Source: Malacoraja senta (Eukaryota). From it: a stretch of DNA of 64,000 nt. The position numbers and the translations under genes were made by a program. Numbering within the stretch: the stretch's first letter is position 1; each line of letters begins with the position of its first letter. The notes below the pieces were generated by a model that was not told where the DNA came from, did no database searches, and saw nothing but the letters and a program-made list of their open reading frames with translations. This document shows, piece after piece, positions 7,222 through 48,357 of the stretch. The stretch spans positions 6,636,001-6,700,000 of the forward strand of contig CM075990.1 of the NCBI GenBank assembly GCA_038087875.1, read 5' to 3'.

Positions 7222-7791
7222 TTTAGAAATTATGATAGGCTGCAGTTGAAATTTTGTGTGGAAGGAGGTGAGGAGATTCAGAATCTTGGCAAATAGCCAG
7301 GTGCCTGAATCGGGTTAACCCCTTCCAACCAAAGGCAGATTAGTATGGAAGGGGAAGAAAATGTAACAATTGTTAACATAAGTAAATGGTAGATAAGATT
7401 GGAGATTAGAGAAGATTTATTTAGATATATAGATATGGTAGATACATGCTGACACATAAAATCTGGCTTGAATGGGTCCCAACCCCTTCTAGTAAGATCA
7501 TTCAAGGGGACGGAGCTAAATGTAGATTAACAACTACGGAAGTCACTAATTGTGTAACTACCACCATTAGGTGGATAATTGGTTACAGTGTCGTCATTTG
7601 TAGACACTGTAACCTCACTTTTTTGATTTTTTTTTAATGTCACAATAATGTACACTTTTTTGTTTCTTTGCTTAAGGACAATTTTGAGAGGGATGTAATA
7701 ATTGAATTTAATATTGCAAATGCTCGCCCAACAGCCAGAGACCTAAGGTATTGGTTGCACCACATGTTTAAAAGGTATTAAATAATTTAAA

Positions 7792-10700
7792 ATGCAAGAC
7801 GATAAACAAAAGAAATTTGGAGGAATCACATTCTGCAGTTGGAATATTAGGGGTGCTAATGAACCAATTAAAAGGGGTAAGATTTTTGCACAATTGAAGT
7901 CACTCAATACGGACATAATATTTCTACAAGAAACTCACTTGAAACTGCAAGCTCAAGCCAGATTGAAGGCAAACTGGATAGGCCAAACATACCAATCTTC
8001 ATATATTTCCAAAGCCAGAGGCACAGCAATTATTATTCGAAAATGTATACCATTTAAATCGAAGAATATCATAACAGATAAGGAAGGGAGATACCTTATA
8101 GTTACCGGAGAGATTCATGCTACCCCAATTACCTTGGTAAATATTTATGCGCCTAATTTTGATAATCCCCAATTTTTTAATAAAATCCTGAATATAATTA
8201 CAGAGTTCAATTATCAAAATGTGATAATTGGGGGAGATTTTAACTGTGTTTTAGATCCATACTTGGATAAATCTTCACAACGGAGAAGGGGCAACACAAA
8301 ATCTAAAACCAGGGAAATCTTAAATACTTACATAAAAAATACAAATATAACAGATGTTTGGAGGATCGCTAACCCTGTCGGAAGGGAATACTCGTTTTAT
8401 TCAATGGTACACAAAACGTATTCACGTATCGACTATTTCTTAGTGGATACAAAACTAATTCCCTATACACTGAATCCAAAGTATCACAATAGTATAATTT
8501 CTGATCACTCACCATTAACTTTTTTTTTTTAATTAGAAGGAATGCCTACTAATAAATCGTTTTGGAGGTTTAATCCTCAAATTTTAAATGACCCACAAGG
8601 GGAAATATATTTAAAACAACAGATGGAACTTTTTAAAAAGAATAATGATACCCCAGAGACCTCACCAGTTCTACTATGGGAATCATTCAAAGCAGTTATT
8701 AGAGGATCTATAATCTCATACCAAGCTTTTTTAAATAAAAGGAATAAGAAAGAACAAAGGCAGTTAGAACAACAAATTGGAGAATTGGAATTAGATAATG
8801 CTAAAGAGCCAACTATAGACAAACATAATAAAATAACAATAATGAAATTTAAATTAAACAAAATATTATCAGCAAATGTTATTAGATTATTTCAAATTAC
8901 AAAACAGGAACATTTTGAATTTGGGGATAAACCACACAAACTTCTGGCTTGACAACTGAAAAAACGGGAAAAGGATCACACGATTTTAAAGATTAAATCA
9001 GATAAAGGGGAATTGTTAACACTACCTAAGGATATTAATAAAAGATTCGCTCAATTTTATCAAAACTTATATACATCTAAAGCGGTAGCAGATAGTACCA
9101 AAGTTAGAGAGTTCCTGGATAATTGTAATCTCCCAAAACTCAATTTGAGTGAACAAGAGGAATTAGGTGCACAAGTCTCAACTAAGGAAATAGAAGAAAC
9201 AATAAATACATTAAAGAATGGAAAAACACCAGGACCAGATGGTTTTAGTAATGAATTTTATAAAAGATTTTACGAGATAATTACACCACGACTACACAAA
9301 ATGTATACATATGCTTTTAAAGAACATACACTTCCAGAAACATTAGCGGAATCAATGATTACACTTATACCTAAAAAAGGTAAAGATTTAGAAGATCCGG
9401 GTTCTTATAGAGCTATTGCGCTGTTAAATACAGATCAAAAAATATTAGCAAAAACATTAGCTAGAAGGCTAAGTAACTATTTTAGTAAATTAATAAATTC
9501 GGATCAAACAGGGTTTATACCCAAGAGATACTCAAGCAATAACCTGAGACGTCTGTTTAATATAATGTACTCACATAAAACCGAAGAACAAGACTTATCA
9601 ATTATTTCACTGGACGCAGAAAAAGCATTTGATCAAGTGGAATGGGATTATATGGTTAAAGTATTGCAAACATTTCAAATGGGAGAGAATTTTATCGCTT
9701 GGGTAAAATTATTATATGATAGGCCTACTGCCAGAATATTAACTAATAATATTTTGTCCTCGAAATTTCAGTTATCAAGGGGAAATAGACAGGGTTGTTC
9801 ATTATCACCTCTGCTATTTGCTCTTGTAATAGAACCGTTAGCAGAAAGTATTAGGATACATCCGAACATTCATGGGTACAATACAAAATACTCAAATAAT
9901 AAGATATCTTTATACGCAGATGATGTACTACTATATATCACAAAATCACAAATTAGTATACCAAATATATTAAATTTAATAGAGGAATTTTGATCCTTTT
10001 CAGGATATAGAATAAATTGGAATAAAAGTGAAATTATGACGATTAAACCTCAAGACCCAACACACCTGTTAAAATTCCCTTTTAAAATCGCTTCAGAAAA
10101 ATTTAAATATTTGGGAATTGAAATTACTAGAAAATATAAAGCTCTATTTAATGCAAACTATATGCCCTTACTCAATAAACTAAACACACTGATTAAAACC
10201 TAAATGATTTTTTTACCACAAAATTTATATCTATTCCAGTCAATACCGATAATTGGATGCTGATATTAAAAACTTTATATGGGACTATAAATCCCACAGA
10301 ATCCAAAGAAAACATTTGTGTAAACCTAAAGAATTTGGTAGATTATCACTCCCCAATTTTTTATATTATTACTGGGCCACAAATGTCAAAAATATGATTC
10401 ACCTGTTGGACAATTCAGCCCAGCAGGTGGATTGGATAGTAATGGAGAGAGAGGACTGTTCCCCTTTTAACATAGGAGCGATCCTTCTCTCACCAACAAA
10501 AATGAAGAATACAATATATAGTAAAAATCCAATTATTCATAGTACAATTAGAATTTGGAAACAAATAAAATTAACGTTAAAATTAAGAAATCTATCACTT
10601 CTCTCACCTATAATGAATAACCCTTCGTTTAAACCTTCTATGATAGATAGATCTTTTATAAATTGGGAAAGATTAGGAATTAAAATGTTTGGAGATATGT

Positions 10701-16402: not shown

Positions 16403-17365
16403 ATGGGCGGCCAGGAGATGTGCCAAAACTGTGAGATGTGGGAATTTGTCGACACCATTGATGTAGATGATGTAGATGATCCCTACAGCTGCAGTAAGTG
16501 TTTGAGGCTAGCGGAACTCGAGCTCCGCATTGAGGAGCTGGAGACCCAACTTCATACGCTGCGGTACATCAGGGAGGGGGAGTATTACCTGGATGTTTTG
16601 TGCCAGGGGATGGTCACACCGACCAGTTTAACTAATTCAGTAGTGAGTGAGCAAGGAAAGGAAGGTGTGGCCATAAGCGAGGCAGGTAGGGGGAACCAGG
16701 AGGAGATGCGGCAGGAGCCACAGCCCTTGTTCCTGACGAGCATGACCGAGGCTCTTACTCAATGTGAGGACGGGATCAGGGGCTGTGGGAGGGATGAGCA
16801 ACCTGGCTGCAGCACCGTGGATCAGGGGGACATTCAAGAGGGGGGAGTTAGAAGAAATGCCGTTGTGATAGGGGATAGTATTATTCGGGGGGTAGATAAG
16901 GTTCTCTGCGGCCAGCAGAACATGTCCCGAAGGCTGTGCTGCCTACCCGGTGCTAGGGTTAAGGATATCTCTGCGATGCTGGAGAGAAATTTGCAGAGGG
17001 AGGGGGAGGATCCAGTGGTCGTGGTCCATGTGGGGACCAATGACATAGGAAGGACGAGGAAGGAGGATCTGCTGAAGGAGTTTGAGCAGTTAGGGAATAA
17101 ATTAAAAAGCAGAACCTCGAGGGTACTGATCTCCGGATTGCTACCTGAGCCACGGGCCAAATCGGCGAGAGTACGTAAAATTAAAAAGCTGAATGCGTGG
17201 CTCAAAGACTGGTGTGGGAAAAATGGGTTTGGTTTCTTGGGCCACTGGCACCAGTACTGGGACAGGGGGGATCTGTTCTGTAAGGACGGACTTCACCTGA
17301 ACGGTGCTGGGACTGGGGTCCTGGCAAATCATATAACTAGGGCAGTAGAGAGGTCTTTAAACTAA
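16403..17365 (+). CDS. CR1 ORF1p: zinc finger, coiled coil and SGNH/GDSL esterase
   Basis: CQNC..CSKC, heptad LAELELRIEELETQL, GDS, PGA, HVGTND, DGLHL; ATG to TAA uninterrupted. Confidence 0.92.
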   Translation: MGGQEMCQNCEMWEFVDTIDVDDVDDPYSCSKCLRLAELELRIEELETQLHTLRYIREGEYYLDVLCQGMVTPTSLTNSVVSEQGKEGVAISEAGRGNQEEMRQEPQPLFLTSMTEALTQCEDGIRGCGRDEQPGCSTVDQGDIQEGGVRRNAVVIGDSIIRGVDKVLCGQQNMSRRLCCLPGARVKDISAMLERNLQREGEDPVVVVHVGTNDIGRTRKEDLLKEFEQLGNKLKSRTSRVLISGLLPEPRAKSARVRKIKKLNAWLKDWCGKNGFGFLGHWHQYWDRGDLFCKDGLHLNGAGTGVLANHITRAVERSLN

Positions 17366-20348
17366 GTAGCGGGGGGGAGGTATCAAGGGTGGTAATAACG
17401 GCAGGGGTAGAGGAAATAGAGCAGGGTATCAGTGGGGAAACGGAAAATCAAAATGTGACAGGAGGATCCAGAATGTGTGAAGATAAAGCTCTAGATGTAA
17501 AAGAGGCAAAAACAGAAAGGAAGGGTAGTAAAAATCATCTGAAAGTGCTGTATCTAAATGCACGGAGTATTCGAAATAAGATAAATGAATTAACGGTGCA
17601 ATTAAGTATATATAGTTATGATATCGTGGCCATTACGGAGACATGGCTGCAAGGGGATCAGGACTGGGAGTTAAATATAGAGGGGTACTCGACAATTAGA
17701 AAAGATAGACAGGAAAGAAAGGGAGGAGGGGTGGCCCTTTTAATAAGGGAGGGAATAACGGCAATAGAGAGGAAGGATATTGCGTTGAAGGATCAGGATA
17801 GTGAAACAGCTTGGGTACAGATAGAGAATAACAAGGGGAAAAAAACACTAGTGGGTGTAATTTATAGACCTCCAAATAGCTGTGACGCTGTTAGTCAGAA
17901 CATAAATCTGCAAATAGTTGACGCATGTAAAAAGGGAACTGCTGTAATCATGGGGGACTTCAATTTTCATATTAATTGGGCAAACCAAACTGGGCAGGGT
18001 AGACTAGAGGAAGAGTTTATAGAATGTATTAGAGACGGGTTCCTAGAACAGTATGTCACAGAACCGACAAGGGGGGAGGCAATCTTGGATCTGGTCCTGT
18101 GTAATGAAGCAGGATTAATTAAAAATGTCATAGTTAGGGACTCGTTGGGAACAAGTGACCACAATATGGTCGAATTCCATATTCAAATAGAAGGGGAGCA
18201 GGTTGAAACTCAGGCTAGGGTACTTAGTCTAAATAAGGGGGATTATGAAGGTATGAGGACTGAGCTGATCAAAGTTGACTGGGATAGCAGACTCAAGAAT
18301 AAGACGGTACATGAGCAGTGGTGTACGTTTAAGGATCTACTGTATAACCTTCAAGAAAAATTTATTCCTATGAAGAAAAAAGGGGTAAGGGTAAGAACAG
18401 TCAGCCATGGCTCAGTAAAACTATAAAGGATAGTATTCGGCTGAAGGCAAGGGCATATAAGGTAGCCAGAGATAGTGGGAGGGTAGAGGATTGGGAAGCA
18501 TTTAAAGGTCAGCAAAAAATAACTAAGAGATTAATTAAGACGGGGAAAATAGACTATGAAAGGAATTTAGCGAACAACATAAAAACTAATAGTAAGAGTT
18601 TTTATAGCTATATAAAAAGAAAAAGGGTGGCTAAGGTGAACGTTGGTCCATTGGAGGGTGAGACTGGAGAGTTGTTGGTGGGGAACATGGAAATGGCAAA
18701 GGCATTAAACGAGTATTTTGTATCAGTCTTCACCATAGAAGACACAAAAAATATTCCAACGCTGGATAAACAGGGGGCGGTAGGAATGGAGGAGCTAAAT
18801 ACTATTAAGATCACCAAGGAGGTGGTATTAGGGAAATTAATGAGACTGAAGGAGGATAAATCCCCTGGGCCTGATGGATTACATCCAAGGGTCTTGAGGG
18901 AGATAGTGGTGGGGATTGTGGATGCATTGGTGATAATTTTCCAAAACTCCCTGGAGGCAGGAACGGTCCCAGTGGATTGGAAAATGGCCAATGTAACACC
19001 TATATTTAAAAAAGGAAGTAAACAGAAGGCGGGTAACTATAGACCGGTTAGTCTAACATCGGTGGTGGGTAAAATGTTAGAGACAATTATTAAAGAAACA
19101 CTAACGGGGCACTTGGATAAACATGACTTCATCGGACAGAACCAGCATGGCTTTGTGAAGGGGAAGTCCTGTTTAACGAATCTGCTCGAATTCTTTGAGG
19201 AAGTAACAACCCGGGTGGATAAAGGGGAACCGGTGGATGTGGTATACTTGGACTTCCAAAAGGCTTTTGACAAGGTGCCACATAAGAGACTATTGCTAAA
19301 AATAAAAAATTATGGGATTGGGGGTAATATATTAGCATGGGTAGAGGATTGGCTAACAAATAGGAAGCAAAGAGTGGGGATAAATGGTTCATATTCGGGA
19401 TGGCAACCGGTAACTAGCGGGGTTCCGCAAGGGTCGGTGCTGGGACCCCAGTTGTTCACAATTTATATAAATGATTTGGAGGAGGGAACCAAGTGTAATA
19501 TATCAAAATTTGCGGACGATACAAAAATGGGAAGAAAAGTAGGGGATGAGGAGGATAGGAAGAGTCTGCAAAAGGATATAGATAAGCTAGGTGAGTGGGC
19601 AACAACTTGGCAGATGAAATTTAATACTAATAAATGTGAAGTCATTCACTTTGGGAAAAAAAATGATAGGGCAAGTTATTTTCTAAATAAGGAGGAGCTG
19701 CGTTGTAATGCAACGCAAAGGGATCTAGGGGTAGTAGTACATGAATCACTAAAAGTTAGTATGCAGGTGCAGCAAGCTATCAGGAAGGCCAATGGAGTTT
19801 TGGCCTTTATTGCTAGGGGGATTGAGTATAAAAACACGGAGGTCTTGCTGCAGCTGTACACAGTATTAGTGAGACCACATTTGGAATACTGTGTACAGTT
19901 CTGGGGTCCATACTTAAGAAAGGATGTACTGGCCCTGGAGGCAGTGCAGCGAAGGTTTACAAGATTAATTCCTGCAATGAGGGGATTGACATATGAGGAA
20001 AGGTTAAGTAGGCTGGAACTCTACTCTTTGGAGTTTAGAAGAATGAGAGGCGATCTCATTGAAACATATAAGATCGTGAGGGGCCTTGATCGGGTGGATG
20101 CACCGAGGATGTTCCCAATGATAGGGGAAACTAGAACTAGGGGACATAGTTGCAGAATAAGGGGGGGCTCTTTTAAAACTGAGATGAGGAAGAACTTCTT
20201 CACCCAGAGGGTGGTTAATTTATGGAATTCACTGCCCCAGGGAGCAGTGGAAGCAGAAACATTAAATATATTTAAGTCTAAAATAGATGGTTTTTTAGCT
20301 GCCAAGGGGATAATGGGCTACGGGGAGAGGGCAGGGATATGGACCTAG
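17356..20348 (+). pseudogene. CR1 ORF2 (APE endonuclease plus RT) with a single 1-nt frameshift at ~18375-18385
   Basis: YLNARS, ITETWL, YRPP, MGDFN, LDLVL, SDHN; SPGPDG, NYRPVSLTS, LDFQKAFD, GVPQGSVLGP, FADD, RPHLEY. Confidence 0.93.
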
Positions 20349-21334
20349 GTAGGGTTAGTATAGTAAGACCTGAGTGATCTCCTGGACAAGTGTCGATCGC
20401 CTGGATTGGGGTCGGAGAGGAATTTCCCGGATTTTTTTCCCGAATTGGACCTGGGTTTTTATCCGGTTTTTTGCCTCCCCCAGGAGATCACGCGGTTCTT
20501 GGGGTGGAGAGGGGTGATAGCGGTATAAAGGGGAGGGTAGTGTCTTGTGTTCTGTGTCTTGTGTCTACTGTTTGTGGGTAGGGGTGTCTGTTTGGTGTTC
20601 AGCCATGAGCGAATGGCGGTGCGGGCTCGATGGACCTGGTGGTCTACTCTCGCACCTACTTTCTATGATTCTATGATTCTATGTATCAATGTTCCCAGAA
20701 ATATCATTTTACCCGGCACCCTTGGATTCAAGAGGCCCCCTGGGGTGATATCCCTTCCCTTGTTTGTGGGGCGTCTACACCATACCTGCCTCTCAATGTC
20801 CAGCAGCGGAAGGACCCGAGACTGTGGTCCTCCCCCACAGAGCCTTGGCGTTGGCTGCATCGAGCTTCAATGCGTCCCTCAGCATGTACTCCTGCAGTCT
20901 GCAGCGGGCCAGTCAGCAACATTCCCCGACGGACACACTGCCTGACCAGCTGAGTTGCTCGAGCACTTTGTGTCTTTTTTTGTAAACCAGCATCTGCAGT
21001 TCCTTTCTCATAGCTTTTCGCTTAACGTGACAATAATAAACCTAAACTTTTATAGTCAGGCCTGAATAATAAGCTGTTTGCTGACACCACGTTCGGATGT
21101 GCTGTTGTGTTGTGAGTGGGAAGGGGAGGAGGGGACTGCAGTTGTTCTTCAGGTCCCTGGATCAGGAGAGAGGAGCAATGGCACATGAGAATTAATTTGT
21201 CTTTGTACCTCAGGCTATGCTGCAGGTGTTTCTGTGGAAAGAAACCAGTGCAGGGCCGTGGCTAAGACACGGTTCCACACGGGTGCCCCTGAGTGCAGGA
21301 GCAGAATGCTGACTGGAGCTCTGAGGGCTTTAAA

Positions 21335-35384: not shown

Positions 35385-35919
35385 GTGTCAATGGTACCTG
35401 TTGGTCAGTGCTGTTCAGATGGGCTGCAGGGCATGTTTCTGTGCTGGATCTCTCTATGACATGACTGTATGACCTGATAATACAGTCTCCAGTTATGGAT
35501 GTACTGCCTTTTGGGGGATGTGGGAGAATTTTGAGAAAAAGCAAATTGAAAGTTGTGAGGACAGGGTTAGAGAAACCAAGCCTGAGTAGAGTGTACACGT
35601 CTGGTGAAGTACAGGCATAATGATTAGTAACAATGTCAGGGGTTATGGGGAGAAGGCAGGAGAATGGGGTTGTGAGGGAAAGATGGATCAGCCATGATTG
35701 AATGATGGAATAAACTTGAAAGGCTATGCAACTTTTTGCTGTGACTAAATGCGCTGCTAAGTTTGCCCAGACTTTGGGATGGAATTGAAGTGACTAAAGA
35801 TCTGAACATTTCAATCAAGGCCGAAGAATCCCTTTAACCCCCCCCCCCCCCCCCCCCCAAAAAAAAATGTCAGCTTTGTGTCCTTGGCAGCCGTGATGAA
35901 TTCCTCTTCTGAATGACCA

Positions 35920-36692
35920 GAGTATTCGTCCGAGAAACGGAGTCGTTCCTCAACAAGTCCTACAGTACGATTGTTACACCTAAGGTACTGGAAGAGAGAA
36001 GGTGGGAGACGGTGAGAAAGGGAGGGAAGCATGGAATGCCAACGTCCCCGGGTGTTGTACCTCTTGTGAACAGGTTCACCCGCTTAGAAGCTGTTGGGAC
36101 AGAAGACGTGTTTACACTGAGCGGCGGACTGGCTTGCGATGCGAATAGGGCTGTTGAGCAAAAACCAAAAAGGCCTAAGGCAGGCAACGCCATTGTGGTG
36201 GGAGACTCCATTGTGAGAGGTACGGACAGGGGTTTCTGCGGCAACAGACGGGATGCGAGGATGGTGTGCTGCCTTCCTGGTGCCAGGATCCAGGATATCA
36301 CGGACAGAGTGCAGAAAATCCTCAAGGGCGAAGGTGAACATCCGGAAGTGGTAGTGCATGTCGGCACAAACGATGTCGGAAAGGGGATGAATATTCTGCA
36401 GCGTGACTTTAGAGATCTCGGAAAAATGCTGAAAAGCAGGACCTCCAGGGTTATTATCTCCGGTTTGCTTCCAGTTCCTCGTGCTGGAGAGAGCAGGAAC
36501 AGGGAGATACGGGACCTGAACGTGTGGCTGAGGAACTGGTGCACGGGGCAGGGATTTAGATTCTTAGATCACTGGGATCTGTTTTGGGGTAAGGGGGAAC
36601 TGTACAAAAGGGACGGATTGCATCTTAACAGGTGTGGGACCAGCATTCTGGCAGGCTGGTTTGCCACTGCTACACGGGTGGTTTTAAACTGA
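35920..36692 (+). pseudogene. CR1 ORF1 SGNH esterase, 5'-truncated
   Basis: NRF..L, VVGDS, CLPGA, HVGTND, DGLHL. Confidence 0.88.
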
Positions 36693-39600
36693 ATAAGGGG
36701 GGTGGGGTGTCGAATGGGATAGTGGAGGATGGAGTTAAAGGGAAAGGGTTTCTTAAATGTGTGAGCGTAGAGACAGAGGGGTGTAAAATGAGGGTAGAAG
36801 CAATAGGTAGCAAGGTGAAAAGTAAAAGTGGCAGGCAGACAAAACCAGGGCAAAAATCAAAAAGGGCCACTTTTCAACATAATTGTATAAGGGGTAAGAG
36901 TGTTGTAAAAACAAGCCTGAAGGCTTTGTGTCTCAATGCAAGGAGCATTCGTAATAAGGTGGATGAGTTGAATGTGCAGATAGCTATTAATGACTATGAT
37001 ATGGTTGGGATCACGGAGACATGGCTCCAGGGTGACCAAGGCTGGGAGCTGAACATCCAGGGATATTCAATATTCAGGAGGGATAGAGAGAAAGGAAAAG
37101 GAGGTGGGGTAGCGTTGCTGATTAGAGAGGAGATTAACGCAATGGAAAGGAAAGACATTAGTTTCGAGGATGTGGAATCGGTATGGGTAGAACTGCGAAA
37201 CACTAAGGGGCAGAAAACGCTGGTGGGTGTTGTGTACAGGCCACCTAACAGTAGTAGTGAAGTTGGAGATGGTATCAAACAGGAAATTAGAAATGCGTGC
37301 GACAAAGGCAAAACAGTTATAATGGGTGACTTCAATCTACATATAGATTGGGTGAATCAAATTGGCAGGGGTGCTGAGGAAGAGGATTTCTTGGAATGTA
37401 TGCGGGATAGTTATCTAAATCAACATGTAGAGGAACCAACGAGAGAGCAGGCTATTTTAGACTGGGTATTGAGTAATGAGGAAGGGTTAGTTAGCAGTCT
37501 TGTTGTACGTGCCCCCTTGGGGAAGAGTGACCATAATATGGTTGAGTTCTTCATTAGGATGGAGAGTGACATTGTTAATTCAGAAACAATGGTTCTGAAC
37601 TTAAAGAAAGGTAACTTTGAGGGTATGAGACGTGAATTGGCCAAGATTGACTGGCAATTAATTCTAAAAGGGTTGACGGTGGATATGCAATGGAAGACAT
37701 TTAAAGACTGCATGGATGAACTACAAAAATTGTTCATCCCAGTTTGGCAAAAGAATAAATCAGGGAAGGTAGTGCATCCGTGGATAACAAGGGAAATCAG
37801 GGATGGTATCAAAGCGAAGGATGATGCGTACAAATTAGCCAGAAAAAGTAGCATACCGGAGGACTGGGAGAAATTCAGAGACCAGCAGAGGAGGACAAAG
37901 GGCTTAATTAGGAAAGGAAAAATAGATTATGAAAGAAAACTGGCAGGGAACATAAAAACTGACTGCAAAAGTTTTTATAGATATGTGAAAAGAAAGAGAT
38001 TAGTTAAAACAAATGTAGGTCCCTTGCAATCAGAAACAGGTGAGTTGATCATGGGGAATAAGGATATGGCGGACCAATTGAATAACTACTTTGGTTCCGT
38101 CTTCACTAAGGAAGACATAAATAATCTGCCGGAAATAGCAGGGGACCGCGGGTCAAAGGAGTTGGAGGAATTGAGTGAAATCCAGGTTAGTCGGGAAGTG
38201 GTGTTGGGTAAATTGAATGGATTAAAGGCCGATAAATCCCCAGGGCCAGATAGGCTGCATCTCAGAGTACTTAAGGAAGTAGCTCCAGAAATAGTGGATG
38301 CATTAGTAATAATCTTTCAAAACTCTTTAGCTTCTGGAGTAGTTCCTGAGGATTGGCGGATAGCAAACGTAACCCCACTTTTCAAGAAGGGAGGGAGAGA
38401 GAAAACGGGGAATTACAGACCAGTTAGTCTAACATCGGTAGTGGGGAAACTGCTAGTGTCAGTTATTAAAGATGGGATAGCAGCACATTTGGAAAGTGGT
38501 GAAATCATTGGACAAAGTCAGCATGGATTTAGGAAAGGTAAATCATGTCTGACGAATCTTATAGAATTTTTCGAGGATGCAACTAGTAGCGTGGATAGGG
38601 GGAGAACCAGTGGATGTGGTGTATCTGGACTTCCAGAAGGCTTTCGACAAGGTCCCACATAAGAGATTAGTATACAAACTTAAAGCACATGGCATTGGGG
38701 GTTCAGTATTGATGTGGATAGAGAACTGGCTGGCAAACAGGAAGGAAAGAGTAGGAGTAAACGGGTCCTTTTCACAATGGCAGGCAGTGACTAGTGGGGT
38801 ACCGCAAGGCTCAGTGCTGGGACCCCAGCTATTTACAATATATATTAATGATCTGGATGAGGGAATTGAAGGCAATATCTCCAAGTTTGCGGATGACACT
38901 AAGCTGGGGGGCAGTGTTAGCTGTGAGGAGGATTCTAGGAGACTGCAAGGTGACTTGGATAGGCTGGGTGAGTGGGCAAATGTTTGGCAGATGCAGTATA
39001 ATGTGGATAAATGTGAGGTTATCCATTTTGGTGGCAAAAACAGGAAAGCAGACTATTATCTAAATGGTGGCCGACTAGGAAAAGGGGAGATGCAGCGAGA
39101 CCTGGGTGTCATGGTACACCAGTCATTGAAAGTAGGCATGCAGGTGCAGCAGGCAGTGAAGAAAGCGAATGGTATGTTAGCTTTCATAGCAAAAGGATTT
39201 GAGTATAGGAGCAGGGAGGTTCTACTGTAGTTGTACAGGGTCTTGGTGAGACCACACCTGGAGTATTGCGTACAGTTTTGGTCTCCAAATCTGAGGAAGG
39301 ACATTATTGCCATAGAGGGAGTGCAGAGAAGGTTCACCAGACTGATTCCTGGGATGTCAGGACTGTCTTATGAAGAAAGACTGGATAGACTTGGTTTATA
39401 CTCTCTAGAATTTAGGAGATTGAGAGGGGACCTTATAGAAACTTACAAAATTCTTAAGGGGTTGGACAGGCTAGATGCAGGAAGATTGCTCCCGATGTTG
39501 GGGAAGTCCAGGACAAGGGGTCACAGCTTAAGGATAAGGGGGAAATCCTTTAAAACCGAGATGAGAAGAACTTTTTTCACACAGAGAGTGGTGAATCTCT

Positions 39601-39725
39601 GGAACTCTCTGCCACAGAGGGTAGTCGAGGCCAGTTCATTGGCTATATTTAAGAGGGAGTTAGATGTGGCCCTTGTGGCTAAAGGGATCAGAGGGTATGG
39701 AGAGAAGGCAGGTACAGGATACTGA
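36683..39725 (+). pseudogene. CR1 ORF2 (APE plus RT) with a 1-nt insertion at ~38598-38602 and a premature TAG at 39228-39230
   Basis: LNARS, ITETWL, MGDFN, SDHN, SPGPD, DFQKAFD, GVPQGSVLGP, FADD. Confidence 0.93.
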
Positions 39726-41085
39726 GTTGGATGATCAGCCATGATCATATTGAATGGCGGTGCAGGCTCGAAGGGCCGAATGGCCTACTCCTGCACCTAA
39801 TTTCTATGTTTCTATGTTTCTATGTAAGGTTTACGATCTGGATATACACGGAATCAAATGAGGCATCAGGTTTTCTGGCAGTTGTCTTGTTTGCAGTGTC
39901 ATTTAAATAGGAGCTTGCTATATTCTTAATTTGGATCTGATTATATATTTTCCAGCCTCCCAAGAAAGCTGTGTATTGTATCAGCAGAGCACATTCACTC
40001 ATTCTGTAGGTAACATTTGGTAAGCATAGTTCAAAGTGAGTGATTTAGTACGGATGTGATTCAAAAGATATTGGCACTGGTGGAAAGGAAGTGCGTGATC
40101 TCACTTTTGAAAGTATTGCTCCTGCAATGAAAAGTTCTTTATTCGGGAGACATTTGAAGGAAGTTGATGAATATTTGTTTGGTTGGTTGAAAGGTTATAA
40201 TGAATGGCAATCATGGGTGTTTATTTTCTACCATGGAACGTTCCTAATGAATTAAAAACTTCTGTACAATTTAAAAAAAGGCACCTCTTTCATCATTTCC
40301 TGCATAAGGAAACAAGGGTTGAAATCCATGCCGTTGCACAAGTGCTTGACAAGTTCACACCAAATTCCTCCTTGAAAGTTGAACGGAAGATCACTGGGTT
40401 TTAGACAGTGGAGACAAGACCGTCAATCATATGTGATCAAAGGTGCAATAATGTTTGGAGTCTGATATGACCCGGTGCATTTCTTTCAATGTAGGCTAGA
40501 AACATCAGTGCTGTTGTATTTTGCAAAGCTTGTTACAGATCAGAGCGTAGTGTCCCAAAGGTCCACTCAAGCAAGTTAATACACTGCTGATTTTCCAGTG
40601 ATTAATCTTAATCACACGAATATTGGTGCTCTTGGTGCTGTTTCGGCTCAATGCGCACCAAGTCCTGTTCGTTTCCATTCAACAAGCCCTGGCTCTGATT
40701 TATGGAGCCTCCCTACAGTTGCCAGCCTTCCCCACAACAAAATTAAGTCTACGTTGGAGAAATGAACCGAGGCAAGCAGACTTGTGCAAGAAGAGGCCCC
40801 GCCACTGGAACCTGGTTGGATGGCAACATACTGGACAAATTCCGCTTCCTCGAACGAGTCCACTGTTTTCAACTAACCTGGCCCCAGGAGGTGGGTGCTG
40901 CATTGTCAGGAGGCTGTAAAGACTCTTTCCCCTCCAGCCTCTTATCTTCCCAGCCGTCGGATGAGTCTCAGCTCGTCCGCTTCTGTGGATTCCTGATTCC
41001 TCCCACGCTCATTTATTGCCTGTGCTTTCCACAGATGCCCTAACCTCTGAACTTCCTCCTCAAAACTACTTTACACTTGCCCAGA

Positions 41086-43963: not shown

Positions 43964-44379
43964 TAAACATCAGCTTTTCTTGTGACAATAAACAGCAGTA
44001 CGGTGTATTGGCACAACTTAACGTTTAAAAACTAGATTGATGTATAACAGTCAATAATGTCTCATAATCTGTTATATACTTACCATCACCCCTTTGGTTA
44101 CAGAAGGAAGCAGTAACGTTAACCATTCCACTTCCACTCCCTCTCAGTTTTATTGTGGGCTGAATTCAGAGCAATGTACTGCAACTACACGTGAAGACTA
44201 AAGACTTGAAACTTACTGCTGCTGTAAAATTGCAAAGAGCTAACAAAACTTACACATTAGCTGGTTTATTTGGTTGAAACTTATAAAGGCAACAGATGTA
44301 ATGTACTGCACAGGATTGTACAGTACATAAGTTTAGACAGGATCTATAATAAATGCAGACGTACACACACAAATGCACA

Positions 44380-45400
<1,021 letters not shown>

Positions 45401-46089
45401 AACTACAGCTCATCTATCTGATGGTAAAATGATGGTAATTAATTTGTTGTCTCTGGAAAGAGCAGTCATTTGCATCAAAGCCACCAGTGAGATGAGTGGA
45501 CGGGGTTCTTCACTGAATGTGTGCCTAGGGTGAATTATATCCTTCCTCTGGCTAGTTAGTAAACCGATGAATGGCTCCACAGCTCATTGTAACTAGGTAA
45601 ATGAGGTGGTGCGGTGACTGACTAGGAAACGGGGCTTCTGACCAGATCAGCCTCCCCCTCGGTCAATGCTGCATCGATGGCTGGCTCAGTGTTGGTACGT
45701 GCACACAGGGAGCAGTCGATGGAAGGGATCTCACAGGCTCTGAAACACAGAGGACACCAGCCAAAAGCATCTTGGCCATCGGAGGAGCCTGCCTCAGTAA
45801 TGTTTTTACAAAAGCATTGACACATCGTATATCAGGAGAGATTGTGGTCTCGATGCAAGGCAAGAACACTGAACCATATACATGTTGAACCTCTGTTCCT
45901 GCTGCAAACTGTGTGTTCTAGTCAGTGTCATTGTTTCATAGCCCACAACATGACTCCAATACAATAGGATCACATTCAGTCTACACCCAGAGAGTAGTAT
46001 TTTCATGGACATTAGATATACAACTATCTCCTTTGAAAACACAAAGGTAGCAATATTTAGATGGAGGAAAACAATAATTTTAGAAATAA

Positions 46090-46850
46090 GGTGGCGTAGC
46101 GGTAGAGTTGCTGCCTTAAAGCGCCAGAAACCTGGGTTCAATCCTGACTATGGGTGCTATCTTGTCAGAGTTTGCACGTTCTACCTGTGACCATGCGGGT
46201 TTTCTCCGGACGCTCCGGTTTCCTCCCACATTCCACAGACGTGGGGGTTTGTAGGTTAATTGGCTTCTGTAAGTTGTCCCTAGAGTGTAGGATAGTGCTG
46301 GTGTACGGGGTGATTGTTGGTTGGCGTGGACTTGATGGGCCAAAGGGCCTGATTCCACACTGTATCTGCAACCTCTAAACTCTAAACTCTAAAAGGAACT
46401 GCAACTGCTGGTTTACACTGAAGGACACAAAATGCTGGAGTAACTCAGCAGGTCAGGCAGCATCTCTGGAGAACATGGATAGGTGACGTTTTGAGTCAAA
46501 TCAATCATTCTGTTTCCCCCCGTTGTGGCGAGTCGACTGGACAGTCAGAATCTTTTTCCCGAGATGGAAAAATTAAATACTAGAGGACATAACTTTAAGG
46601 TGAGAGGGGCAAAGTTTAAAGGAGATGTGCGGGGCATGTATTTTACATAGAGGGTGGTGAGTGCCGGAAGTTTGAAGCAGATACGTAGTGGAATTTAAAA
46701 GACTCTTAGAAAGGCATGTGGATATGCAGAGAATGGAGAGATGAGGGTTATCTGTACATGCAGGTAGATAAGGGATAGTCTTGGCATCATGTTCAACACA
46801 GAAACTGTGGGCTGAAGGGCCTGTTCGTGTTCTGTATTGCTCTATGTATT
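46090..46850 (+). mobile_element. V-SINE (46090-46392), minus Penelope arm (46392-46498) and CR1 3' fragment (46540-46850)
   Basis: tggcgtagcggtagagttgctgcc, ctctaaactctaaa tail; aggaactgcaactgctgg; tactagaggacataactttaaggtgagagg. Confidence 0.82.
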
Positions 46851-47078
46851 AGCTAATGTTAGAGCTCAGCATATCTGTTCTTTCGTTCAATGTAAATATT
46901 ATGCATTACTACTGCATACTGGTCTGGAACTTATAGTTAAAGCCTTGCAAGTATGTTTCTACTGTGCAGGATGGTGAGATTTGAACCAGCTGACACTGCG
47001 AGTTGTACAAGAGACCACAGAATGACAGACACACCCCTCTCTGCACACCACATTGCAGCGGGAGCTTGGAAGGACTGA

Positions 47079-47720
<642 letters not shown>

Positions 47721-48357
47721 GTGAGACTGGGGGCAAGGCTGGGAAGCAGGAGCTGTACAGAGGCGAGGTGAACCATATTATCACTGCCTGAGTGAGACAA
47801 AGTCTGGCAAAAGGAATTAATTGTGGGTTCCATTTCTTGCCGAATTATGACAAGCCTCTTGGGACTTGGTTTAGTTTCAAGTCTGAACAAAATCCTGGCA
47901 AGTGAAAAATACATTTGCATTTTGTTGACCCATGTGGCTGTGAATGCTTGCCACACTCCAAATCGATGTGACCACCTTTGATACCTCTTGGCTCGCGTCC
48001 CGTTGCCGCTGTTGAAACGTGGTGGTTGATCCTTTCAGGCAGTGGAAAATGCGTGTCAGAGCATAAAATCGTAAAAGGCTTGGCCAAGACAGAGAATGGT
48101 AACCTCTTTATTCATGCATTCTGCACTGGTGAGCTGCTCCCCAACAATCAACTAAAAGCATCTGTGGTCATGTAAAAGTATGGGTGACCCCCTCATGAAC
48201 CTTGCTATCGCTGCACCATTGTAAACACTCCTGTGGCCCTTTCCATCACGGAGAGGTGGAAACACAGGCTGGAACAATTGGAACTGGTCGCTCCGACATC
48301 GGAAACCCCAGTCCGGATACCTGCCGACGGTTGGAGCGGCTGCAGAAACCTTTTATA

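Follow-up and report, generated by a model that had tools for sequence, protein, structure and literature searches.

A putative −1 frameshift signal at the ORF1-ORF2 junction of CR1 retrotransposons in Malacoraja senta

The ORF1-ORF2 junction of CR1 element 2

The window analyzed is a 64,000-nt stretch of the Malacoraja senta genome (GenBank assembly GCA_038087875.1, contig CM075990.1, positions 6,636,001 to 6,700,000 of the forward strand), and all coordinates refer to it. It contains two CR1 long interspersed nuclear elements (LINEs), elements 1 and 2, and this report concerns the junction between the first and second open reading frames (ORF1 and ORF2) of element 2. ORF1 encodes an esterase and ORF2 encodes an APE endonuclease followed by a reverse transcriptase (RT) (Table 1). 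The 3′ terminus of ORF1 reads GTT TTA AAC TGA, and the ORF2 frame (36629-38662) is −1 relative to ORF1. The G-rich tract downstream is made up of G6 (36697-36702), a T, G4 (36704-36707) and GGG (36716-36718), with further GG tracts that start at 36724, 36727 and 36731. An initial annotation, made from the DNA letters, had placed an in-phase T_TTA_AAC directly ahead of the TGA, ORF2 in the −1 frame, and G6-T-G4 after a 7-nt spacer, all of which are borne out in the sequence. In this copy ORF2 is interrupted twice, where the frame changes near 38600 and again at an in-frame stop (39228-39230).

Table 1. Junction features of CR1 element 2 and the corresponding site in element 1.
Feature	Position	Strand	Evidence or remark
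ORF1 of CR1 element 2, 5′-truncated, 259-aa open frame	35913..36692	+	SGNH/GDSL esterase, Pfam PF13472 E=1.5e-12; Leu-Asn-stop end
Slippery heptamer T_TTA_AAC	36683..36689	+	X_XXY_YYZ phase with ORF1; same letters in 9/9 lineage representatives
7-nt spacer, ORF1 stop TGA (36690-36692) plus 4 nt	36690..36696	+	
G-rich tract, candidate stimulator	36697..36732	+	G4Hunter 2.00; 4 invariant G positions in 9/9
−1-frame linker, mosaic	36689..36913	+	blastn of linkers; RNA reads of a relative
In-frame ATG, rival start, codon 35 from heptamer	36788..36790	+	
ORF2 body, APE endonuclease and RT	36914..39725	+	Pfam PF03372, PF14529, PF00078
3′ terminal stem-loop and three 8-nt tail repeats	39759..39824	+	Sequence and fold
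Element 1 (subfamily B) junction: heptamer 17356-17362, TAA, 8-nt spacer, G7	17356..17377	+	Ser-Leu-Asn-stop

Elements 1 and 2 are divergent, with 88/168 identical residues in the SGNH domain and 137/220 in the endonuclease. As the initial annotation recorded, the codon ahead of the heptamer and the stop differ between them (Val and TGA in element 2, Ser and TAA in element 1). Its further statement that heptamer, phase and G-run spacing are all retained holds for the heptamer and its phase and fails for the spacing, which is 7 nt in one element and 8 nt in the other. A TTTAAAC-type 7-mer is by itself frequent, with 18 matches on the two strands of the window. The in-phase placement at the ORF1 stop, rather than the bare presence of the 7-mer, is the non-chance feature. 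Given a Leu-Asn ending, the chance of the exact heptamer letters is ~0.01 per lineage from the element's own codon usage (TTA for 10/129 Leu, AAC for 30/49 Asn, T in 22% of third positions). A G5 run starts in just 0.6-1.5% of 4-nt windows in the two elements.

A 3′ stem-loop followed by a short tandem repeat tail is a feature of CR1 LINEs. Element 2 has this 3′ end and no poly(A), in addition to the APE-plus-RT ORF2 and an esterase-type ORF1 whose homologs come from jawed vertebrates. Canonical vertebrate CR1 LINEs are likewise described without a poly(A) tail (PMC13343379). Element 2 is a vertebrate CR1 LINE by its domains, ORF1 type and 3′ end; the sole tree is an unrooted endonuclease tree of nine representatives. 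The copy belongs to a young family with 150 scored matches at 98-100% protein identity, and the five copies compared as DNA show 98-99% identity across 600 nt. Near-identical copies have ORF1 open frames of ~313 aa. In the window copy, a C21 + A8 run (35836-35867) lies directly 5′ of the truncated ORF1.

Conservation of the heptamer and of the −1 frame

Protein, DNA and one short-pattern search gathered 235 loci from the 1.94-Gb genome. This set is enriched for near-identical copies, and a few places are present twice. The genome-wide count of the short pattern equaled the count of the reversed control, with no excess, and the pattern was therefore used for locus picking only. A profile without the final columns was used to find the ORF1 ends, and it placed none in 35/235 loci. 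The heptamer is present within 16 nt of its expected place at 175/200 located ORF1 ends and is exactly in phase at 162/200; a position-ordered sample of 30 loci gave 21/28 located ends. Linkers tell apart seven subfamilies, A (element 2), A2, B (element 1), C, D, E and F. Seven copies from this genome and two amniote-like metagenome copies served as the nine lineage representatives.

The nine representatives agree in all eight letters that make up the heptamer and the T that opens the stop. The codon before the heptamer Leu varies (Val, Ser, Gly, Thr or Ala) and ends in T in every case, and TGA, TAA and TAG all occur as the ORF1 stop. Four-fold sites upstream are identical in 138/280 comparisons (49%). 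Conservation of the heptamer in 9/9 lineages against this background goes beyond coding need, and the comparison gives good support to the proposal in the initial annotation that selection acts on a signal at the nucleotide level.

The same ending is seen at the protein level. Among the 120 ORF1 homologs listed of 134 found, 94 end in Leu-Asn-stop, mostly 26 residues past the catalytic Asp. For homologs with the DGxH block the figure is 89/105. Among the named sources are Callorhinchus, sharks, rays, Latimeria, Paramormyrops, Synaphobranchus, Xenopus, Ranitomeya, turtles and lizards. The residue preceding Leu takes 13 values, and its codon is unable to end in T for just 2/64 distinct ends. In a dereplicated test, this preference for T before Leu is strong relative to positions −4 and −5 (p=2.5e-6 and 0.0016). 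A Leu-Asn ending is also shared by homologs in unnamed contigs and in a flatworm assembly, where host contamination is possible (P0032, P0108, P0115-P0120); some have a tail 5 aa longer, and P0118 runs 8 residues beyond Leu-Asn. A search for longer proteins returned four matches, one of them a ray gene model (P0121) that spans the esterase, the −1 frame and the endonuclease. P0121 could reflect a mutation in that copy or a correction made in annotation, and it is left uncounted as support.

A metagenome scan contributed 80 loci. The ORF1 stop could be read in 52, and 30 of these 52 also have an endonuclease match. Nine are amniote-CR1-like, a label taken from protein similarity, and these nine constitute the DNA-level evidence outside the M. 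senta genome. Their heptamer is intact in 5/9 and decayed in 4/9, and in 2 of the 5 intact loci the −1 frame is open into the endonuclease. In 27 control loci, esterase-ORF1 LINEs of other lineages, the ORF1 end carries no heptamer, and 20/27 have ORF2 in frame 0. Since these ORF1s end otherwise, Leu-Asn is not required by the esterase fold. Scans of viral and prokaryote contigs turned up no relatives.

The linkers from heptamer to endonuclease in the nine representatives are 231, 177, 180, 183, 186, 150, 141, 96 and 249 nt long, all multiples of three. The stretches ahead of the AUG contain 0 stops in 214 −1-frame codons versus 14 and 14 in the other frames. The overlap upstream is free of AUG, and the first Met, where present, is at codon 35, 25, 39, 41, 11, 23, 22 or 4. 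The −1 frame is open from the heptamer in 25/26 copies of subfamily A, 26/28 of B and 17/21 of E.

Subfamily E is decisive against AUG initiation. Sixteen of its 17 open copies have no Met ahead of the endonuclease. Among 20 extended copies, the first Met is at codon 267-268 in 10, past the SDH motif of the endonuclease; 6 of the remainder meet a private stop without a Met and 4 have private Mets. Copy L324 joins a 326-aa ORF1 to 986 open −1 codons with the first Met at 268.

The in-frame ATG at 36788, offered in the initial annotation as the alternative start of ORF2, is retained in 27/30 subfamily A copies (ATA in 2, another linker in 1), and its position is not common to other subfamilies. 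By blastn, the subfamily A linker is A2-type to ~36746, carries a remnant of the E endonuclease start at ~36746-36762, and continues as a donor linker that contains the ATG. Both switch points lie 5′ of the ATG and preserve the −1 frame of the heptamer. Locus L269, which combines an E-type junction with an A-type endonuclease, is intermediate, and sequence comparison identifies the subfamily A linker as a product of template switching between CR1 subfamilies. Three raw RNA runs of a related species were also used, two of them oligo-dT runs in which the junction is ~40-60 deep per strand. Loose read ends at 36746 match both parental types; the reads possibly derive from host introns, and they therefore do not prove an active element. 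With an unshared position, a swapped-in segment and an AUG-less subfamily E, initiation at ATG 36788 makes a poor general mechanism.

The G-rich tract and candidate stimulators

The G-rich core begins 7, 7, 8, 8, 8, 10, 10, 10 and 10 nt from the heptamer in the nine representatives. Four G positions located 11-18 nt past the heptamer are invariant in 9/9, and the first Gly codon is GGG at the start of the G-run. Run length varies among genomic copies. The G4Hunter score of the tract is the maximum of element 2 (3.8 kb). Scores across the nine representatives are 1.0-2.4, and the windows rank in the top 0.13% in subfamily B and 1% in E. A canonical three-tier G-quadruplex (G4) pattern with loops up to 12 is missing in element 2 and is found in 1/9 representatives, and two-tier patterns occur in 7/9. 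The quadruplex proposed in the initial annotation is thus matched by a conserved G-rich core and a top G4Hunter score, and not by a canonical three-tier pattern. Synthetic G4s placed 6-8 nt past a slip site give up to ~7% −1 frameshifting, an effect that depended on stable, short-looped three-tier G4s and fell with fewer quartets (PMC3919603). The CR1 site differs from these signals in having no canonical three-tier pattern. Natural G4-stimulated frameshifting was anticipated in a 2016 review that knew of no case at the time (PMC5009743).

A shared local hairpin or pseudoknot was considered as the stimulator and rejected, as the folds are no better than shuffles in 8/9 representatives. The 70 nt downstream of the heptamer contain 3-19% C. 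Helices between the junction and the 3′ end of the element can be drawn, and cognate pairs are no better than non-cognate pairs (permutation p=0.09-0.27) in a test of seven lineages with low power. The 3′ end is the second-best junction partner in A and A2 and not in B or E, with shuffle fractions of 0.05-0.79. The tails of A, A2 and D in this test are near-identical, and no cognate tail turned up for C. D and F were represented by decayed tails of copies that did not supply the junctions, and the amniote-like lineages by tails from other contigs.

The stimulator favored here is a short G-tract that would stall the ribosome. A weak two-tier or bulged quadruplex is conceivable as its mode of action, though less likely than not, and a protein that binds the G-run is held to be equally likely. 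Pairing with the element's own 3′ end is unlikely, and so is the absence of any stimulator besides slow termination.

The 3′ untranslated region (UTR) of element 1 (20345-20600) is ~300 nt, longer than that of element 2, and contains both the top G4Hunter peak of element 1 and the best partner for its junction. The subfamily E 3′ UTR (L316-L334) has an A/T-rich tract of varying length and a tail repeat unlike those of A and B.

Probable programmed −1 frameshifting and alternative explanations

An in-phase X_XXY_YYZ heptamer ahead of the stop and a downstream ORF open in the −1 frame are both present at the CR1 junction. The heptamer at the ORF1 end and an intact lineage without an AUG together indicate that the copying enzyme is likely made by a one-base backward slip. 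Comparison across the lineages makes it highly probable that programmed −1 frameshifting at this junction produces a fusion of the ORF1 esterase with the endonuclease-RT. A minority of ribosomes would slip back one base at U_UUA_AAC, just 5′ of the ORF1 stop. In the standard tandem model for X_XXY_YYZ sites, tRNA-Leu and tRNA-Asn would re-pair one base back while the G-tract is near the mRNA entry channel, and the G-rich core 7-18 nt downstream would be stimulatory. Most ribosomes would terminate three bases on and release the ORF1 protein (ORF1p), and a few percent would go on into the Gly-rich linker, endonuclease and RT. The peptide FKLNK in the initial annotation stands as a conceptual −1-frame translation and not as the product. 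The tandem slip would retain the Leu-Asn of ORF1, and reading would resume from there at the −1-frame codon 36689.

Termination followed by reinitiation, at ATG 36788 or independently of AUG, would yield a separate ORF2 protein (ORF2p), with the conserved letters acting as a reinitiation signal. Related systems and the element itself offer some grounds for this: ORF2 of human L1 is translated independently of AUG (PMC11485995), SART1 has a stop-start junction with downstream structure (PMC3708506), ATG 36788 is kept in most subfamily A copies, and subfamily E has in-frame near-cognate TTG and ATA codons. Reinitiation nevertheless fails to predict an in-phase X_XXY_YYZ, a −1 phase that stays constant across linkers of nine different lengths, or frame-preserving switches 5′ of the ATG. 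The position and context of the AUG vary, with a −3 purine in some lineages only, and retention of the ATG in copies that are 98-99% identical says little. Reinitiation is accordingly judged improbable.

Two further explanations dispense with ribosomal slippage or with an RNA signal. Frame correction at the RNA level, by splicing or by polymerase slippage on T4/A3 or the G-run in a minority of transcripts, could draw on the variable G-run length among genomic copies. The RNA reads of the relative that cross the junction show no indel at a frequency of at least 5% at the heptamer or G-run, and the joints listed include no GT..AG joint across it, although rare events or a single active source copy would be invisible. 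A spliced template would pass to progeny, yet the genomic copies retain the −1 layout, which leaves such correction scarcely credible. Alternatively, Leu-Asn may be a protein constraint on the ORF1 C terminus, with letters that are simply inherited. The conserved length of the C-terminal helix, 26 aa from the catalytic Asp in most homologs, fits this view. It does not account for the use of the rarest-but-one Leu codon (8%) in 9/9 lineages together with AAC and the preceding T, when other synonymous sites have turned over and the esterase ORF1s of other LINE lineages end otherwise. A constraint on protein alone is very improbable.

Several observations weigh against programmed frameshifting. 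The support for slippage is comparative. The lineages share ancestry, and the ~0.01 per-lineage odds therefore cannot simply be multiplied. The representatives were selected as open-frame copies. Decayed older subfamilies are often off frame (in frame in C 10/16, D 3/14 and F 12/16), and the commonest linker length in D is not a multiple of three. The T-before-Leu test is weak when all helix positions are the reference (p=0.039 and 0.32). Among local folds, no hairpin or pseudoknot is conspicuous (z from −2.1 in A2 to +0.6), and Rfam returned one chance match below the gathering score only. The near-cognate codons of subfamily E leave a start other than AUG available and, because L1 ORF2 is translated without one, lack of an AUG is not alone proof of a slip. 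ORF1 has been repeatedly lost in CR1-group elements (PMC13343379), so ORF2p can function without the ORF1 part.

The canonical CR1 elements surveyed in PMC13343379 likewise have an SGNH esterase ORF1, an APE and RT ORF2 and no poly(A), and occur in cartilaginous fish. The main text of that survey is without the terms "frameshift," "overlap" and "start codon," and it gives no account of how ORF2 is translated. The portions of the full-text literature covered, which included PMC5009743, PMC3708506, PMC11835228, PMC13343379, PMC5911963, PMC5006619, PMC11485995, PMC3905857 and PMC3919603, yielded nothing on frameshifting in a vertebrate CR1; the 1990s papers that first described full-length chicken and turtle CR1, and Repbase, lie outside this scope and may mention it. 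The nearest precedent is the statement that TRE5-A and TRE3-A of Dictyostelium, likewise APE-type non-LTR (long terminal repeat) elements, need a −1 frameshift for ORF2 (PMC5911963). They differ from CR1 in clade, in host and in an unrelated ORF1.

Frameshift sites of coronaviruses use the same heptamer as CR1. Retroviral gag-pol, coronaviruses and PEG10 share with the CR1 junction an in-phase X_XXY_YYZ, a structural protein upstream and a polymerase in the −1 frame (PMC5009743). Unlike those sites, CR1 shows no significant 3′ stem-loop or pseudoknot, has a stop directly after the heptamer and carries a purine-rich G-tract. A related fish LINE encodes an esterase ORF1p that is a membrane binder and has drawn comparison with Gag (PMC3905857), and the CR1 fusion product would therefore parallel Gag-Pol. 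Human L1 and SART1 are likewise bicistronic LINE RNAs with the same problem of ORF2 expression, and the way in which ORF2p arises from such RNAs in general is called unclear (PMC3708506, PMC11485995). Their termination-reinitiation gives a separate ORF2p, whereas the CR1 layout predicts a fusion.

If frameshifting operates, CR1 ORF2p would have an N-terminal esterase and would be produced in fixed proportion to ORF1p, as Gag-Pol is. An ORF2 that starts at an AUG may then be the wrong protein, and the annotation of intact CR1 elements and the design of retrotransposition assays would change. With the slip site narrowed to seven letters, a single reporter would suffice for a direct test. Should the G-tract be the trigger, it would be a natural stimulator of −1 frameshifting that is not a hairpin. 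CR1 is the most abundant repeat in many vertebrates. The chicken genome is one of them (PMC11835228). A broader proposal, that a Gag-Pol-like fusion of a membrane-binding esterase to RT has been made by the dominant jawed-vertebrate LINE family for >400 million years with a natural G-tract trigger, quadruplex or protein-bound, in place of a stem-loop or pseudoknot, and by other esterase-ORF1 LINEs through UGA-C readthrough, is tentative.

Among the metagenome loci L174-L238, 12 of the 20 frame-0 esterase-ORF1 LINE loci carry UGA-C, with ORF2 directly past the ORF1 stop. Examples of the frame-0 layout are L189, L218, L236 and L207, and L189, L207 and L236 have no Met ahead of the endonuclease. 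The arrangement suggests stop-codon readthrough as a possible parallel route to the same fusion.

Elsewhere in the window, 7786-9993 contains AT-rich LINE ORF2 fragments, presumably L1/Tx1-like, with endonuclease and RT motifs read by eye. Long low-complexity open frames occupy both strands of 44353-48034, which has a strong mirror-image GC/AT skew and probably consists of tandem repeats.

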